64,000 nt of DNA, taken from positions 1-64,000 of IMG/VR virus record IMGVR_UViG_3300027631_000002; one strand, written 5' to 3'. The notes below the pieces were generated by a model that did not search any database, was not told the origin of the DNA, and saw only the letters and a list, made by a program, of their open reading frames with translations. Of the stretch, positions 19,384-26,773 are shown in pieces. The DNA is from a virus. The translations under genes and the position numbers were made by a program. Each line of letters begins with the position of its first letter. Positions within the stretch are counted from its first letter, which is position 1.

Positions 19384-20265
19384 TTAGTTTATTGCTAATC
19401 TTTTTGTTGATGTTTTACCATCTTCTGTAATTTTTACGATGTACATACCTGTTACTAAACTACTTACGTTTAATTGACTTTGTATATTTTCTACTAAAAC
19501 TTTTTTACCAATCATATCATAAATCTCTACATCTTTTGTAGAATTTAGATCAGTTGTGATATTTAAAATATTTTTTGTTGGATTTGGATAAACTTGTAAT
19601 CCAGAAATTTGATTTTGATTAGTAGATAGTACTAATGCACCATTTGATACGGTAAAGTTGTCGATTCTCCAAGCACCAGCCGCAGAATAGTTTGCAGGTG
19701 TTGTTGCAGCATAACCAACTGCAGAGTAGTCTGTTCCTGTTGGATTAAAAATTGATACTATTCTGAAAGCAAATCCAGATTGATTACTAGCATTAGTTGG
19801 CATTACAAGTGTAACCATTGGAGTTGAGGTAAATGAATTAGTCAATAGTCCACCATTATTACCGAATACTGTCCAAGTTGTTCCGCCATTTATACTATAT
19901 TCATATTGTTGAAATCTTGATGAAGTATTTGAACCTCTTGGATCAAAAGTTACATTAATTGCATCTGTGAATCCAAGTGTACTAACTGCAAATTGAAATC
20001 CAGCAGTACCTGATCCTGTTAGTGTTAAAGGAAATGTTTTAATGCTATACCCAAGATTGGTAGTTGCTGTACCATTACCTAATGGCATAGAACCAGCTGT
20101 ACTAAGATTATCAACAACTCCACCTATCGGTGTGAATGTTCCTGTTCCAGTAGTAGGTAACATAGCAGTTGCTGGGATTGCATTGTCAAAATTCCATTGT
20201 GTGATGTTTTGACCAAAAGAAATTGTTGTCATAAGTAAGACAACTAAAGTTAAAAGTTTTTTCAT
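19384..20265 (-). CDS. type IX secretion system (T9SS) type A CTD-containing protein
   Basis: Signal peptide plus C-terminal VYPNPTKNILNI...IYDMIGKKV...LNVSSLVTGMYIVKI...STKRLAIN. Confidence 0.92.
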   Translation of the reverse strand: MKKLLTLVVLLMTTISFGQNITQWNFDNAIPATAMLPTTGTGTFTPIGGVVDNLSTAGSMPLGNGTATTNLGYSIKTFPLTLTGSGTAGFQFAVSTLGFTDAINVTFDPRGSNTSSRFQQYEYSINGGTTWTVFGNNGGLLTNSFTSTPMVTLVMPTNASNQSGFAFRIVSIFNPTGTDYSAVGYAATTPANYSAAGAWRIDNFTVSNGALVLSTNQNQISGLQVYPNPTKNILNITTDLNSTKDVEIYDMIGKKVLVENIQSQLNVSSLVTGMYIVKITEDGKTSTKRLAIN

Positions 20266-20399: not shown

Positions 20400-21235
20400 A
20401 AGGGGCTGAGATTATGCCATCTTGTAAGAATCTTTTGAAGAATTATTGTTTCTCTTCGTATCCACAATCTTTTGGATTGTAATTCTCATTGAGGATTAGT
20501 TAGACTAATCACTTCTTGAGGCTTCAACTACTCTCTTATTACTCAACTCTCTTCAAACTTGCGGTCTGATTAAGGGTTCGACCCCTTAGAGGTTTTTGGC
20601 AAGAATACGTCTCAACTTGCGGTCTTGACGTGCACTGGACGGCCCAGTACTATGTACTCAACTTTCGTTGAAGCCTGACAGACACTTTTGCTTTTTAGTT
20701 TTTAAATTTTACTTCAAATGTAAATTGCTTTAGTGTTGTGGATATGTCGAAGAAGTGGTCTGTCGTAAGCTTCGTTATCTTTTGAACAACGAAATACTAA
20801 ACTCCTTCGTGAAGCCTCCCAGCCTCCATATTTTAAGACAACTTCAAACTAACACCTTGGTAGATGTTTAGTAGGGATAGTAGCAGCACCACCTGTTCTC
20901 TACCATTACCTTTCGGTTTTAAGTCACCTCTTATATTGGAAGTCGCAATCATATGGTTGGAGCCATACTTCTCGCAAAAATCCTATGAGTTATTCTTATT
21001 GGTGTTCCCACCTCAACCGGACAATCCACATTGCCGCGGTTACTCAACCACTTTCTCTACAGTGTTACCCTCGATAGTAAAGGTTGCGTAATATCTCACT
21101 TGTGTACTCGAGCTCTTACAAGCCGCAGAACCATTTAACGTTGATTCCACTTTATCCTAAGTTTCCCTAGGTTATTTAACGACGATACACCGCCGATTAT
21201 CATTTTACTAGCCACCGAAGTGATTAGTTGGATAA
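20400..21235 (-). ncRNA. large structured ncRNA, GOLLD-like (~830 nt)
   Basis: GC-elevated, no convincing ORF, many minus-strand hairpins with GNRA/UUCG loops (CCTAGG-GAAA-CTTAGG, TCAAC-GAAA-GTTGA, ACC-GAAA-GGT, CAC-TTCG-GTG, two GCAA loops). Adjacent to the tRNA cluster. Confidence 0.6.
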
Positions 21236-21449: not shown

Positions 21450-21546
21450 TAGTCTGTACGGGATTCGAACCCGTGTGACCAGCCGCCCCGAAGGACCGCT
21501 ACCCGTCCTGACCCACCGAAGTGAGTATCCGCTAGACGAACAGACC
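21450..21546 (-). ncRNA. tRNA-Glu-scaffold RNA 1 (anticodon arm capped by UUCG, D-loop hairpin insertion)
   Basis: GGTCTGT/ACAGACT-A acceptor, ACGGG-TTCGAAT-CCCGT T-arm, D-loop insert ACTCAC-TTCG-GTGGGT, anticodon arm GTCC-TTCG-GGGC. Confidence 0.85.
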
Positions 21547-21577
21547 GATAAGTAGTTGCCTACCTAGGTTTTATTTG

Positions 21578-21666
21578 TAGTCTGTACGGGATTCGAACCC
21601 GCGTTACCTCCTTCGAAGGGAGACGTCCTGACCCACCGAGGTGAGTATCCACTAGACGAACAGACC
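21578..21666 (-). tRNA. tRNA-Glu-scaffold RNA 2 with TCG (Arg) anticodon and D-loop hairpin insertion
   Basis: Same acceptor, near-identical T-arm. Anticodon arm TCTCC-CTTCGAA-GGAGG. Insert ACTCAC-CTCG-GTGGGT. Confidence 0.8.
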
Positions 21667-21749
21667 GAAGTGTCGTGTTTAATTACACTAAAGATGAATA
21701 CTTAAAAGTACCAACTTGTCAACATTACAGAAATGACATTTACACTTAG

Positions 21750-21822
21750 TAGCGGGAGAAGGACTCGAACCTCCGACCTTATGGTTATGAGCCACACGAG
21801 CTGCCAACTGCTCTATCCCGCG
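21750..21822 (-). tRNA. tRNA-Met(CAT), initiator-like
   Basis: C1:T72 mismatch, A11:U24, loop CTCATAA. Only two of the three initiator G-C pairs (TGTGG/CCATA). Confidence 0.88.
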
Positions 21823-21835
21823 ATATATTTTGTTG

Positions 21836-21951
21836 TAGTCTGTACGGGATTCGAACCCGCGTTCCTCTCTCGTGACTAAGAGAATGTCCTGTTTACCTTA
21901 CTTTAATGCCGAAGCTTTTTGTTCAGTAAACGTCCACTAGACGAACAGACC
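21836..21951 (-). ncRNA. tRNA-Glu-scaffold RNA 3 (43-nt D-loop insertion, enlarged anticodon loop containing GTC)
   Basis: Same acceptor, near-identical T-arm. Insert GTTTAC...GC-TTCG-GC...GTAAAC. Arm TTCTC-TTAGTCACGA-GAGAG. Confidence 0.82.
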
Positions 21952-21995
21952 GAAGAGTGTCGGAATTAAAACGCGCATCACTCTTATTTGTTTGA

Positions 21996-22027
21996 CAAAG
22001 ATACGGTGACTTTTTTAATCTACCAAA
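21996..22027 (-). promoter_or_regulatory. Bacteroidota sigma-A-type promoter (repeated unit)
   Basis: TTTG-N20-TATCTTTG. Near-identical copies at 22294, 22611, 22690, 22818 and 34685, and a looser one at 21281. Most share TTTGGTAGATTA. Confidence 0.85.
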
Positions 22028-22123
22028 TCTTTTTTAATTTATTTTGTACCCCAGCCAGGATTTTCACCTGTATCTCTGTTTTAGTTAAAACAATGACTTT
22101 ATTCATCCAATGGAGTGTATTTG

Positions 22124-22224
22124 TAGTCTGTAAGGGATTCGAACCCATGTTTTCTCCTTCAATGCCATTACGCAGTAATCGGGAAATGTCCTATCACCGA
22201 AGTGAACCGCTAGACGAACAGACC
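22124..22224 (-). ncRNA. tRNA-Glu-scaffold RNA 4 (24-nt anticodon loop with internal hairpin)
   Basis: Same acceptor. Insert TCAC-TTCG-GTGA. Arm TTTCC-[CGATTACTGCGTAATGGCATTGAA]-GGAGA. Confidence 0.82.
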
Positions 22225-22344
22225 GAAAGAGTTGTGCTATCGTACACCACTAGGCCGGAATTTCACACGACACCTACTCTTATTTTATTTTGACAAAGAT
22301 ACGACGACTTTTTTAATCTAACAAATCTTTTTTCATTTATTTTG

Positions 22345-22483
22345 ACCGCATTGAGGGAGTCGAACCCAAATGTAAATACATTTACTAGTATTTATATTTA
22401 TAATAACAAGATTAGAACCTATCCCGACTTCATACTAGAATATTAAATTATTATCTAGTTTACTAACTACTTGTTCAACGCGA
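22345..22483 (-). pseudogene. degenerate tRNA-like element with long AT-rich interior
   Basis: Acceptor TCGCGTT/AATGCGG and GGG-TTCGACT-CCC T-arm core. D and anticodon arms are not canonical. Confidence 0.45.
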
Positions 22484-22488
22484 ATGTG

Positions 22489-22593
22489 TAGTCTGTAAGG
22501 GATTCGAACCCATGTTTACAATCTCTCCATATACCAGGATATTTGAGATTGTCGTCCTATCACCAAAGTGATATACCGCTAGACGAACAGACC
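22489..22593 (-). ncRNA. tRNA-Glu-scaffold RNA 5 (8-bp anticodon stem, 19-nt loop)
   Basis: Same acceptor. Insert ATCAC-TTTG-GTGAT. Arm ACAATCTC-[19 nt]-GAGATTGT. Confidence 0.82.
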
Positions 22594-23988: not shown

Positions 23989-25053
23989 TTATCCTGAGAT
24001 ATATCTAAATAATAGAAATAATCCACAAGAAACTGCAATTGTTACTGGTAGTGTAAGAATCCATGCAGATAATATTGTTTTTATTGTTTTTGTTTTTAAA
24101 TTATTTACTCCTTTTGATGCAACCATTGATCCTGCAATACCAGAACTTAATATGTGTGTTGTTGATACTGGTAGTTTAAATGCGGTTGATAATCCAATTG
24201 TAATTGCTGCAACTAATTCAGAAGAAGCTCCTTGTGCATAAGTTAAATGTTGTTTACCAATTTTCTCTCCAATTGTAACTACAATTCTTTTCCATCCAAT
24301 CATGGTTCCTAATCCTAATGAAGTAGCAATCATCCACATAACCCACATTGGTGGATTAGAAACATTGTCTAATGTAAAAGTAAGTGGTAAGAAAGCCATA
24401 AGAATAATCATAGCTAAACCGATTCCTTTTTGACCATCATTTCTTCCGTGAAAGAATGAAACTAACGTACAAGTGGATATAAGTATTGTTCTAATCCAAA
24501 ATGGTGGTGGGTTATCTCCATTGGGTTCTTCAAATACGTCTTTTCTTTTAACAACCTTGTTCAAAAACCACATTAAAAGAATTACCATAGTAAATCCTAA
24601 TAAAGGTGAGAAAGCTAGAGCTTTTCCTATATCAATAATTTTGCCCCAATTAGTATAATCTACTCCTGTTATAATAGAATAACCAACAGAAACTCCAATA
24701 ATTGATCCAATTAAGGTATGAGAAGAAGAGGCAGGGATTCCTTTATACCAAGTTGCTAAGTTCCAAAAAATAGCAGTAATTAAGATTGACATAACCATAC
24801 CCATCGTATGATAGATGTTACTATCTGTAAGTATTTCTTTAGGAATAAGTGTTACGATACTTAATGCAACACCTACACCACCAGTAATGAGACCGAGGAA
24901 ATTCATAATTCCTGACCAAACAACTGCTTGTTTAGGCTTTAAAGATTTTGTATAGATTACAGTGGCAACTGCATTTGCGGTATCGTGAAATCCATTGACG
25001 AATTCAAAGATACAAACCGCGAGTAAAGCTAAAATTAGCAAAGTTGTTAACAT
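23989..25053 (-). CDS. pitA: PiT-family inorganic phosphate transporter
   Basis: NGFHDTANAVAT, GIPASSSHTLIG, HGRNDGQK and PVSTTHILSSGIAG. Confidence 0.93.
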   Translation of the reverse strand: MLTTLLILALLAVCIFEFVNGFHDTANAVATVIYTKSLKPKQAVVWSGIMNFLGLITGGVGVALSIVTLIPKEILTDSNIYHTMGMVMSILITAIFWNLATWYKGIPASSSHTLIGSIIGVSVGYSIITGVDYTNWGKIIDIGKALAFSPLLGFTMVILLMWFLNKVVKRKDVFEEPNGDNPPPFWIRTILISTCTLVSFFHGRNDGQKGIGLAMIILMAFLPLTFTLDNVSNPPMWVMWMIATSLGLGTMIGWKRIVVTIGEKIGKQHLTYAQGASSELVAAITIGLSTAFKLPVSTTHILSSGIAGSMVASKGVNNLKTKTIKTILSAWILTLPVTIAVSCGLFLLFRYISG

Positions 25054-25093: not shown

Positions 25094-26500
25094 TTATTTT
25101 TTGATCATATGACTACATATTTCATCCATCCAACCGAGTTTCTGTGCAACCTGTGCTCCACTACATCCTTTAATAAAATCATTTCTAGTATTATATTTAA
25201 GTGCCTCTTCTTGACATCTTTCTTTTGTCCAATACCCAACTGGTCTTTTTTTAACTATCATGTGTGAACATATTTCATCCATCCAACCATTTCTACCAGC
25301 TACTTGTCCAGAAGGAGATCCTTTAATATAACTACTTCTGGTATTATATTTAAGTGCTTCTTCTCTACATCTTTCTTTTGTCCAATATCCTCTAGGTTTT
25401 ATATCTCGTATTTCCATATGACTACATATTTCATCTATCCAGCCATTTCTTTGTGCCGCTGCTGCCGCACCACCAGCACTTGTTTTAAAATCATTTAAGT
25501 TATTGTATTTAAGTGCTTCTTCTCTACATCTTTCTTTTGTCCAAGAACCGGCAGGATTAGTTTGTTTATCCATATGTGCACATATTTCATCCAGCCAACC
25601 ATTTTTATATGCTGAACTTTGTGCACCCCTAGATCCTAATTTGAATTTATAACGTTTATCATATTTTAGTGCTTCTTCTCTACATCTTTCTTTAGTCCAA
25701 TAGAAATCTCTTATAACCTTATCATAATCTTTACATATTTCATCGATCCATCCATATTTATATGCTGCAGCTATTGCACCTGGTGAACCTTTAGTAAAAT
25801 CAATTTTATTTTTATATTTAAGAGCTTCTTCTTTACATTTCTCTTTAGTCCATATAAGATAGTTACCACCAACATCTCCACCATTAGAAGTATTTAAAAC
25901 CTTATAGTTTCTATCTCTATATTCTTTAATAAGATTAATTTCCATCTTCACAGCATCATCAAGAGGTATAGGTTCTGGTGTTAATAATTTAGAAGTTGGT
26001 ATAAGTCCTGTTAATTTGATATAATCATATACTGAGGATTTTCTACTATTTTCAAGGGTATGTTGTATATTTCTACGTTTAAAGTCAGATGTTAAACCTA
26101 TATATACTGCATTATCTGGAAATGTATATATATATACAAATCTCTTTACACGATTACCTAAATAGCTCATATGGTCACATACCTCTTTTAACCAACCTCT
26201 TATTCTTGCTATACTATATGCAGTAGGTTCATTATTTCCAAATTCACTTCTACTATTATATTTAAGAGCAATTTCTTGACATCTTTCTTTTGTCCAATAT
26301 CCTTTAAAGTTTCTAAGTGGAATCATATGACTACACACTTCATCTAACCAGCCGTTTAAACGTGATGAATTATATGCTCTCTCCGAGAGTTTACGAAATT
26401 CACTTCTACTAGAATATTTTAAAGCTTCTTCTTGACATTTTTCTTTTGTCCAAATTTTTTTACCTTCGTTTATCTCATTAAAATTTTTTAAATGCTTCAT
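25094..26500 (-). CDS. GIY-YIG endonuclease embedded in seven ~50-aa WTKExCxEEALKY repeats
   Basis: FVYIY...VYIGLT...R...H core with 2 repeats before and 5 after. N-terminus MKHLKNFNEINE. Confidence 0.75.
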   Translation of the reverse strand: MKHLKNFNEINEGKKIWTKEKCQEEALKYSSRSEFRKLSERAYNSSRLNGWLDEVCSHMIPLRNFKGYWTKERCQEIALKYNSRSEFGNNEPTAYSIARIRGWLKEVCDHMSYLGNRVKRFVYIYTFPDNAVYIGLTSDFKRRNIQHTLENSRKSSVYDYIKLTGLIPTSKLLTPEPIPLDDAVKMEINLIKEYRDRNYKVLNTSNGGDVGGNYLIWTKEKCKEEALKYKNKIDFTKGSPGAIAAAYKYGWIDEICKDYDKVIRDFYWTKERCREEALKYDKRYKFKLGSRGAQSSAYKNGWLDEICAHMDKQTNPAGSWTKERCREEALKYNNLNDFKTSAGGAAAAAQRNGWIDEICSHMEIRDIKPRGYWTKERCREEALKYNTRSSYIKGSPSGQVAGRNGWMDEICSHMIVKKRPVGYWTKERCQEEALKYNTRNDFIKGCSGAQVAQKLGWMDEICSHMIKK

Positions 26501-26519
26501 AGTATTATATATAAAGTTA

Positions 26520-26550
26520 AAGAGATTGATATTATAAATATCAGTCTCTT
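26520..26550 (-). terminator. terminator after rnpB-like gene
   Basis: AAGAGACTGATAT-TTATA-ATATCAATCTCTT. Confidence 0.7.
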
Positions 26551-26559
26551 TCTTAAATA

Positions 26560-26754
26560 TAAGTAAGTGAGCTTAGCCGCGATTTTGTTCTATCCCATCA
26601 TTTATCTTTGCATCAACCCGTTCTCAAAGGGAAACCGACACCCTCGAATTGTTTGACTTGCTACTTCCTTAGTACAATCGACATTAGTCTCCTAAGTTAG
26701 GTTTTGTAGTCGCGAACTTCCTCTGTTTCCAGCGATAGGTTCTCTGCTTACTTA
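26560..26754 (-). ncRNA. rnpB: minimal RNase P RNA (~195 nt)
   Basis: P1 AAGTAAG/CTTACTT. P4 GAGGAAGTTCGCGA pairs with ACAAAATCGCGGCTAA, with the bulged U. TAGCAAGTCAAACAA and AGATAAATGA conserved-region motifs. P5 CTAC/GTAG encloses only ~40 nt. Confidence 0.85.
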
Positions 26755-26773
26755 TTGTAAAAGTACAAGATAG

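Follow-up and report, generated by a model that had tools for sequence, protein, structure and literature searches.

A predicted RNase P RNA of class A ancestry, encoded by a phage and lacking a functional specificity domain

The locus considered here raises the question of whether a phage can encode an RNase P RNA from which the specificity domain (S-domain) has been almost entirely lost and, if so, with which protein and on which substrates such an RNA would act. The window, which is the whole stretch of DNA analysed, corresponds to the first 64 kb of a 179,626-bp IMG/VR virus record. This record is rated only about 30% complete by CheckV and is, thus, a fragment of a very large phage.

A 193-nt RNA gene and its anatomy

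The minus strand at positions 26561-26753 carries the gene for a 193-nt miniature RNase P RNA, extending from the 5' end of P1 to the 3' end of P1 (RNA position p corresponds to window coordinate 26754-p). An earlier note on this DNA had described an RNase P RNA of about 195 nt at 26560-26754; its ends are correct to within 1 nt, and the strand is the minus strand. P1, P4 with its bulged U, P5 and the catalytic motifs named in that note are each present in 26561-26753, and the approximately 40 nt that it saw at the site of the S-domain are, more exactly, 41 nt (RNA 49-89). The overall reading, that the RNA is homologous to RNase P RNA, with the catalytic domain (C-domain) intact and the S-domain vestigial, is therefore supported, and P2, P3, the P6 pseudoknot, P15, P16, P17 and an invariant GGGU in L15 can be added to the features listed (Table 1).

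A search with RNase P covariance models, which the earlier note had proposed as a check, gave an end-to-end match. The RNaseP_arch model (RF00373, model positions 1-288) matches the minus strand at 26563-26751 with a score of 26.1 bits and an E-value of 1.1e-5 (permissive thresholds, 501 nt searched at 26400-26900), with the S-domain columns deleted and 36 nt in their place; this score is far below the gathering threshold of 84, and below those of all other RNase P models in Rfam. At Rfam gathering thresholds, no RNase P match was found in the whole window, the only matches being GOLLD RNA and tRNAs, and RF00010 (threshold 100) had no match in the whole 179-kb phage record. The best score obtained for any member of the family described below was 52.2 bits (locus L239), again below the RF00010 threshold. 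These low scores, and the resulting failure of formal membership, are due to the missing S-domain, and current annotation pipelines miss all the genes of the family because the scores fall below the Rfam thresholds. A covariance model of the family itself (R1) finds exactly one copy in the window's own record, at 26573-26740, with 186.4 bits. Single-sequence folding was no better than for shuffled sequences on either strand (z of +0.44 and -0.65), a result expected to say little about a pseudoknotted RNA such as this one. A plus-strand reading was rejected, with no RNase P match on that strand and only weak chance matches to sRNA/miRNA families on an AT-rich hairpin at 26492-26554. A scan of the minus strand for sigma-70 promoters and intrinsic terminators found nothing, Bacteroidota promoters being outside its reach.

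Table 1. Elements of the miniature RNase P RNA and neighbouring features in the window (percentages paired are shares of alignment cells; R1 is the family covariance model)
Feature	Window position	RNA position	Strand	Remarks
P1 5' strand	26742-26753; partner 26561-26571	1-12; partner 183-193	minus	1-7 pair with 187-193 and 10-12 with 183-185; 8 of 10 pairs change on both sides (14 homologues)
P2 5' strand	26734-26739; partner 26594-26599	15-20; partner 155-160	minus	98.1% paired; 6 of 6 pairs change on both sides (89 sequences)
P3 hairpin CUG-GAAA-CAG	26723-26732	22-31	minus	Two modelled pairs 100% paired; P3 longer in relatives
CR-I-like motif / J3/4 and P4 5' strand	26710-26722	32-44	minus	AGGAAGUUCGCGA; P4 98.0% paired
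P5 5' strand	26706-26709; partner 26661-26664	45-48; partner 90-93	minus	99.7% paired; 3 of 4 pairs change on both sides
Vestigial S-domain	26665-26705	49-89	minus	41 nt, between the P5 strands
P6 5' strand, in stub	26700-26703	51-54	minus	AACC, after P5
P7-like stem, in stub	26692-26696 with 26668-26672		minus	95.3% paired; 4 covarying pairs
Small hairpin, in stub	26680-26689		minus	Conserved GGAGA and UCG flanks
J5/15 GCAAG		93-97	minus
P15-P16-P17 arm with L15	26612-26657	97-142	minus	P15, P16 and P17 95.5-96.6% paired, covarying
P15		97-100 with 139-142	minus
P16		105-108 with 131-134	minus
P17		110-113 with 123-126	minus
P6 3' strand, in P17 loop	26633-26636	118-121	minus	GGUU; 97.6% paired
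L15 GGGU	26616-26619	135-138	minus	At least 97% conserved; aligns with E. coli L15 CGGGU
J18/2 (CR-IV-like)	26600-26607	about 147-155	minus	AGAUAAAU; nearly invariant, conserved form AGAUAAAUG; aligns with E. coli UAGAUGAAUGA
CR-V-like motif and P4 3' strand	26574-26588	166-180	minus	ACAAAAUCGCGGCUA; aligns with ACAGAACCCGGCUUA of E. coli rnpB (R1) and with the Rfam consensus; covaries with 5' strand
Protein with type IX secretion C-terminal sorting domain	19384-20265		minus
GOLLD RNA	20403-20809		minus	Rfam, 322 bits; follows the tRNA-like array
Five tandem tRNA-Glu-like units	21505-22593		minus
PHO4-family phosphate transporter gene	23989-25053		minus
GIY-YIG-domain gene	25094-26500		minus	Directly downstream of the RNA; Pfam GIY-YIG E 2.8e-5
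HNH/NUMOD4 homing-endonuclease gene	26774-27193		minus	Directly upstream of the RNA; Pfam HNH_3 E 7.7e-14, NUMOD4 E 1.1e-9
T4-type polynucleotide kinase-phosphatase (PNKP), RNA ligase, Glu/Gln-tRNA synthetase catalytic domain	27260-30044		minus	Upstream of the RNA

In P4, RNA positions 36-38 pair with 177-179 and positions 40-44 with 172-176, the bulged nucleotide being U39 (26715) or U38 (26716), each a U in at least 97% of 89 sequences. This layout of 3 bp, a bulged U and 5 bp is presumably the same geometry as that of E. coli P4. P6 is built from different letters in LR756501, in which both strands read AGCU. The GCAA of J5/15 is nearly invariant and aligns with GCAAGG of E. coli, and the GGGU of L15 probably pairs with the 3' CCA of tRNAs; the tRNA genes of the window do not encode CCA. 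The P18 helix is absent from the window copy, and the P18-region insert is missing in 58 of 89 family members. Across the family, 40 to 129 nt separate the two strands of P5 (median 52), the 41 nt of the window copy being among the smallest values. Rfam aligns no S-domain in either the window RNA or the 301-nt RNA of locus L239: its columns are deleted or the nucleotides stand as unaligned inserts, and no counterpart of the bacterial CR-II and CR-III could be aligned. The remaining stub is not random in the family: besides one strand of P6, it has a P7-like stem that covaries and a small hairpin between conserved flanks.

A large family restricted to phages

At least 89 distinct relatives of this RNA were found in viral and metagenome contigs. 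Homologues detected with blastn lie in published huge phages, LR745206 (634 kb) and LR756501 (735 kb), and pattern scans yielded 15 viral loci, 47 viral loci (with a 3' pattern) and 90 metagenome loci. A looser pattern, consisting of TGTCGGTT, a gap and CGGGTT, was rejected, with only two true members among at least 117 loci. R1 was built from 14 hand-bounded sequences, from P2 to the 3' strand of P4, with P1 left out and without pseudoknots; in the 90 metagenome loci it gave 84 hits, of which 75 were full length, and it matched all 35 new viral loci. The large alignment consists of 99 R1 hits, representing 89 distinct sequences. One 1145-bp metagenome contig contains two full-length copies of the mini RNA (L188:67-707).

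The cultured Stenotrophomonas phage DLP6 carries an unannotated member (L276:1313-1535, KU682439.2 at about 105785-106007; R1 83 bits, E 1.3e-17), between a hypothetical gene and a tRNA-Arg gene, 18 nt upstream of the latter. For the divergent members L261 and L239, blastn gave no match among GenBank phages. A scan of 185,579 prokaryote species, each represented by one genome, gave four pattern matches; the one real member lies on a 3-kb contig binned as a Roizmanbacteria MAG, and the matches in Algihabitans, Kiloniellales and Vicinamibacterales were rejected as not being true members. The family is, as sampled here, large and phage-restricted.

The proposed structure is maintained throughout this family by compensatory changes. 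In the seed alignment of 14 homologues, made with MAFFT and not fitted to structure, 94.4% of cells are paired, versus 30-41% in slid controls; 34 of 55 pairs change on both sides, and none of 500 shuffles reached any of these measures. In the 89 distinct homologues, 97.4% of cells are paired, versus 29-45% in slid controls. The cleanest test is provided by P4 and P6, because R1 contained neither pseudoknot. P4 is 98.0% paired, with three pairs changing on both sides (CG63/AU15/GC6, GC65/CG13/UA7 and GC74/CG8), and P6 is 97.6% paired, also with three covarying pairs (AU72/UA9, AU68/GC16 and CG67/UA11). The motifs GAGGAA, UUCG, GCAA, GGGU, AGAUAAAUG, ACA-AA and CGG-UA are 90-100% invariant in the 89 members; the conserved nucleotides thus cluster where RNase P function requires them. 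The P4 sequence AAGUUCG, a shared derived form, occurs both in phages of Bacteroidota-type hosts and in phages of Stenotrophomonas.

The bridge to bacterial RNase P is provided by locus L239, the RNA of which matches RF00010 over its full length with an E-value of 1.9e-15. It is in register with class A RNA at P1-P5, P15-P17, L15 (CGGGU), J18/2 and CR-V, with about 120 unalignable nucleotides at the S-domain. Other members match RNase P models with E-values ranging from 2.3e-8 (L147) to 1e-3, and RNase P is the only non-tRNA family matched by the relatives. In the reverse direction, a search of a 1-kb E. coli locus with R1 gave its best match inside rnpB, on the right strand (13.2 bits, E 0.004), with an alignment covering P15/L15, J18/2, the 3' strand of P2 and CR-V. 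As each of the steps from the window RNA to the family, from the family to L239 and from L239 to class A RNase P is significant, homology of the window RNA to the class A C-domain can be regarded as secure. The comparative evidence, taken together, indicates that the window RNA is a true RNase P RNA of class A ancestry, encoded by a phage, kept by selection and lacking a functional S-domain.

The sequence is also present in RNA libraries. Contigs from four lake and freshwater metatranscriptome libraries (four studies) cover 26544-26755; they carry no strand information and may reflect DNA carry-over. None of the four libraries covers the flanks at 26300-26540 and 26756-27000. The contigs include relatives with different stub inserts, and one of them continues for 240 nt into sequence resembling the upstream region of a relative. 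This is a hint of expression, and a discrete transcript is not thereby proven.

Genomic setting, protein partner and substrates

Arrays of ordinary tRNA genes are the usual setting of the family. ARAGORN detects 446 tRNA genes at the loci of the 89 distinct members, and every one of them is on the same strand as the RNA; a tRNA gene lies within 30 nt of the model core for 27 of the 89 RNAs and within 1 kb for 42. At locus L012, the RNA starts 3 nt after a tRNA-Cys and ends 6 nt before a tRNA-Leu. The context of the window RNA is weaker than that of the family, as the nearest canonical tRNA found by ARAGORN (tRNA-Met, 21749-21822, same strand) is 4.75 kb downstream and the immediate flanks are homing-endonuclease genes. 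PNKP, RNA ligase and the synthetase constitute a tRNA repair and handling neighbourhood upstream; the Glu/Gln-tRNA synthetase, of 278 aa, consists of the catalytic domain and has no anticodon-binding domain. Type IX secretion sorting domains are a hallmark of Bacteroidota. The presence of a protein with such a domain in the window points to a probable Bacteroidota host, and a published prediction gives the same host group for the largest huge phages (PMC7162821).

The endonucleases appear to have a history with this RNA. At L014:8600-9330 (minus strand), the RNA gene is split between the 5' strand of P16 and P17 by about 490 nt, and L247 is arranged alike. The L014 insert, enclosed by a 9-bp helix (CGCUAAAUU with AAUUUAGCG), contains a gene for a 136-aa HNH/NUMOD4 endonuclease; a group I intron reading was dropped, the Rfam search giving no match. 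P4 still covaries between the two halves, and the L014 RNA may therefore tolerate the insert as a peripheral extension, although some copies, such as this split one, may be inactive. The endonuclease encoded at 26774-27193 in the window is 64% identical (E 2e-58) to the one encoded inside the L014 RNA gene (L014:8704-9114), suggesting an endonuclease lineage that targets the mini RNA gene or its surroundings.

The earlier note supposed that the RNA borrows the host RnpA protein. The Pfam family Ribonuclease_P (PF00825) was not found in the window's partial 179-kb record (about 30% complete). Among seven complete or near-complete carrier genomes, it was found in two, LR745206 and a 476-kb IMG/VR genome (97% complete, L267), with 49 bits each, and rnpA is absent from the other five (four genomes at least 95% complete and the 735-kb LR756501). 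The phage RnpA-like proteins are 115-119 aa long and have an RNR motif. The LR745206 copy (76408-76755; L003:1465-1812) matches a solved RNase P protein and lies hundreds of kb from the mini RNA gene of that phage. Borrowing is, thus, plausible for most relatives, those without rnpA; the other two encode an RnpA of their own. With rnpA present in only two of the seven genomes, most carriers would need host RnpA or no protein at all, and some would bring their own.

The explanation that best accounts for these observations, to which we assign a probability of about 0.78, is that the RNA is a catalytically competent RNase P RNA of class A ancestry, free of its S-domain, and that it processes phage tRNA transcripts, in most cases together with the RnpA of the host. 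Cleavage of pre-tRNA at its 5' side is predicted from the co-orientation with tRNA genes and from the published activity of the C-domain alone (PMC5839562), and catalysis on phage pre-tRNAs is a prediction with good, if indirect, support. During infection, the mini RNA would bind RnpA, supplied by the host in most phages and encoded by the phage in some, and the complex would remove the 5' leaders from the phage's own tRNA transcripts. Substrates would be recognised through the C-domain, mainly by the acceptor stem, the cleavage site and the 3' end, the elbow formed by the T- and D-loops going unmeasured. Where the RNA is wedged between tRNAs, an RNase P cut at the downstream tRNA would also free the 3' end of the RNA itself. 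In the window phage, the tRNA-Glu-like units downstream would probably be substrates too.

These five units, hereafter mimics, have an invariant acceptor stem and T-arm; a hairpin is inserted in the D-loop after AGYGG, and the anticodon arm is replaced by sequence that differs between units. The first (22489-22593) lies about 4 kb downstream of the mini RNA on the same strand, and the tRNA-Met gene is located between the third and fourth. The upstream three are each preceded by a TATCTTTG motif. The Bacteroidota -7 promoter consensus is TAnnTTTG, and the motif, as judged by its letters, fits it. RNase P without an S-domain does not measure the tRNA elbow. As they retain the acceptor stem and T-arm, the mimics are likely substrates of the mini RNase P in the window phage.

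In this phage lineage, the mini RNase P, the five mimics, the catalytic-only Glu/Gln-tRNA synthetase, PNKP and RNA ligase might together form a tRNA toolkit blind to elbow and anticodon, in which the ribozyme would mature look-alikes that host RNase P handles poorly, creating a private pool of acceptor-stem RNAs for a non-decoding purpose; this remains speculative and, in our view, doubtful. The reading that follows from the earlier note, namely that the S-domain was lost to process RNAs with an abnormal elbow, the mimics being the main and preferred substrates, seems improbable. The mimics do lie 4 kb downstream on the same strand with an invariant acceptor stem and T-arm, they accompany the mini RNA in the window's record as well as in the two relatives nearest to it, and an enzyme lacking the S-domain is blind to the elbow (an established feature of RNase P; see also PMC5839562). 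The mini RNA is, however, far more widely spread than the mimics. A descriptor of the D-loop hairpin finds mimics in the window's record, in its two closest relatives and once in LR745206, and the exact 15-nt motif at the 5' end of the mimics occurs in just 2 of 267 collected loci, the window's closest kin. Most family members sit among ordinary tRNAs. The strict mimic descriptor found none in five carrier genomes that are at least 95% complete, and none in the 735-kb LR756501, so that S-domain loss in general is not explained by the mimics. Moreover, as read from the sequence, the elbow need not be distorted by a hairpin that follows the conserved GG of the D-loop.

Another possibility is that the RNA does not cleave at all and is instead a mimic of RNase P that ties up or diverts the RnpA of the host, or competes for pre-tRNA, thereby disturbing host tRNA maturation. 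The regions of the C-domain that bind protein (P3, CR-IV, CR-V and P15) are indeed kept, most of the complete relatives have no rnpA of their own, and the RNase P-like RNA of camelpox and other orthopoxviruses, the only earlier viral case found, does not cleave pre-tRNA in vitro and has been discussed as a possible decoy (PMC3001073). A decoy would nevertheless need no invariant bulged U, J5/15 GCAA, L15 GGGU or P6, all of which serve substrate docking and catalysis and all of which are conserved or covarying here; the RNA is co-oriented with, and wedged among, the phage's own tRNA genes, and two relatives supply rnpA rather than merely consuming that of the host. We consider such a role unlikely. 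That the RNA is a functionless, decaying fragment of host rnpB picked up by a phage is hardly credible: half of the normal molecule is missing and mobile endonuclease genes flank the RNA, but covariation in at least 89 distinct copies contradicts decay, the derived P4 form is common to phages of Bacteroidota-type hosts and of Stenotrophomonas, and the survey of prokaryote species yielded a single member, on its 3-kb contig.

Significance and comparison with known RNase P RNAs

No account of a phage RNase P RNA, or of the mini RNA family, turned up in a full-text literature search, and RNase P is not mentioned in the paper on huge phages whose genomes carry the family (PMC7162821). As far as could be found, RNA-based RNase P has been reported in print from cells and organelles only, and the inactive camelpox RNA is the sole viral precedent. 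If the predicted maturation of phage tRNAs by the mini RNA is correct, phages equipped with large sets of tRNAs supply the maturing ribozyme as well, widening the viral takeover of translation. The idea is directly testable with the copy in DLP6, a cultured phage. The family would amount to a natural deletion experiment run many times by evolution, with an outcome, P6 kept and P18 dispensable, that agrees with the behaviour of engineered C-domains. It would, thus, help to define the minimal functional bacterial RNase P, and the 193-nt copy would offer structural studies and ribozyme engineering a natural class-A-type ribozyme of very small size.

The closest relative among known systems is class A RNase P RNA (RF00010; E. 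coli M1/rnpB, 377 nt). The phage RNAs share with it P1-P5, P15-P17, the P4 and P6 pseudoknots, the CR-I-, CR-IV- and CR-V-like strands, the J5/15 GCAA, the L15 GGU and, in some relatives, a gene for a putative RnpA partner. Unlike class A RNA, the window RNA has no P8-P14, CR-II, CR-III or P18, with only 41 nt between the P5 strands; its J3/4 is one A shorter, a U-G pair adjoins the bulge, and it is encoded by a phage.

The camelpox RNA is similarly virus-encoded and resembles RNase P RNA. The resemblance is described as some similarity in secondary structure only, with no mention of covariation in the review concerned (PMC3001073), and it belongs to a eukaryotic virus without tRNA arrays.

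A natural precedent for the loss of the S-domain is provided by the type T RNase P RNA of Pyrobaculum and other Thermoproteaceae, which, at about 200 nt, has lost nearly all of this domain and is still the enzyme of the cell (Lai et al., 2010; PMC3012483). The window RNA resembles type T RNA (RF02357) in being natural, about 200 nt in length and nearly devoid of an S-domain. Type T RNA is, however, archaeal and cellular and works with archaeal proteins, whereas the phage RNA has bacterial P6, P16 and P17 elements and the L15 GGU. Membership of type T was rejected: this model was never the best in clan CL00002, the window RNA being assigned to RNaseP_arch and L239 to RNaseP_bact_a.

The C-domain of E. 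coli RNase P RNA is catalytic on its own, needs a P6-like contact and derives no benefit from P18 once the S-domain has gone (Mao et al., 2018; PMC5839562). This engineered RNA (Eco CP RPR) and the phage family represent one and the same half of class A RNase P RNA; the family likewise keeps P6 and lacks P18 in 58 of its 89 members. The Eco CP RPR is man-made and of reduced efficiency, whereas the phage family is natural and selected, and has a conserved stub of its own, with a P7-like stem and a hairpin.
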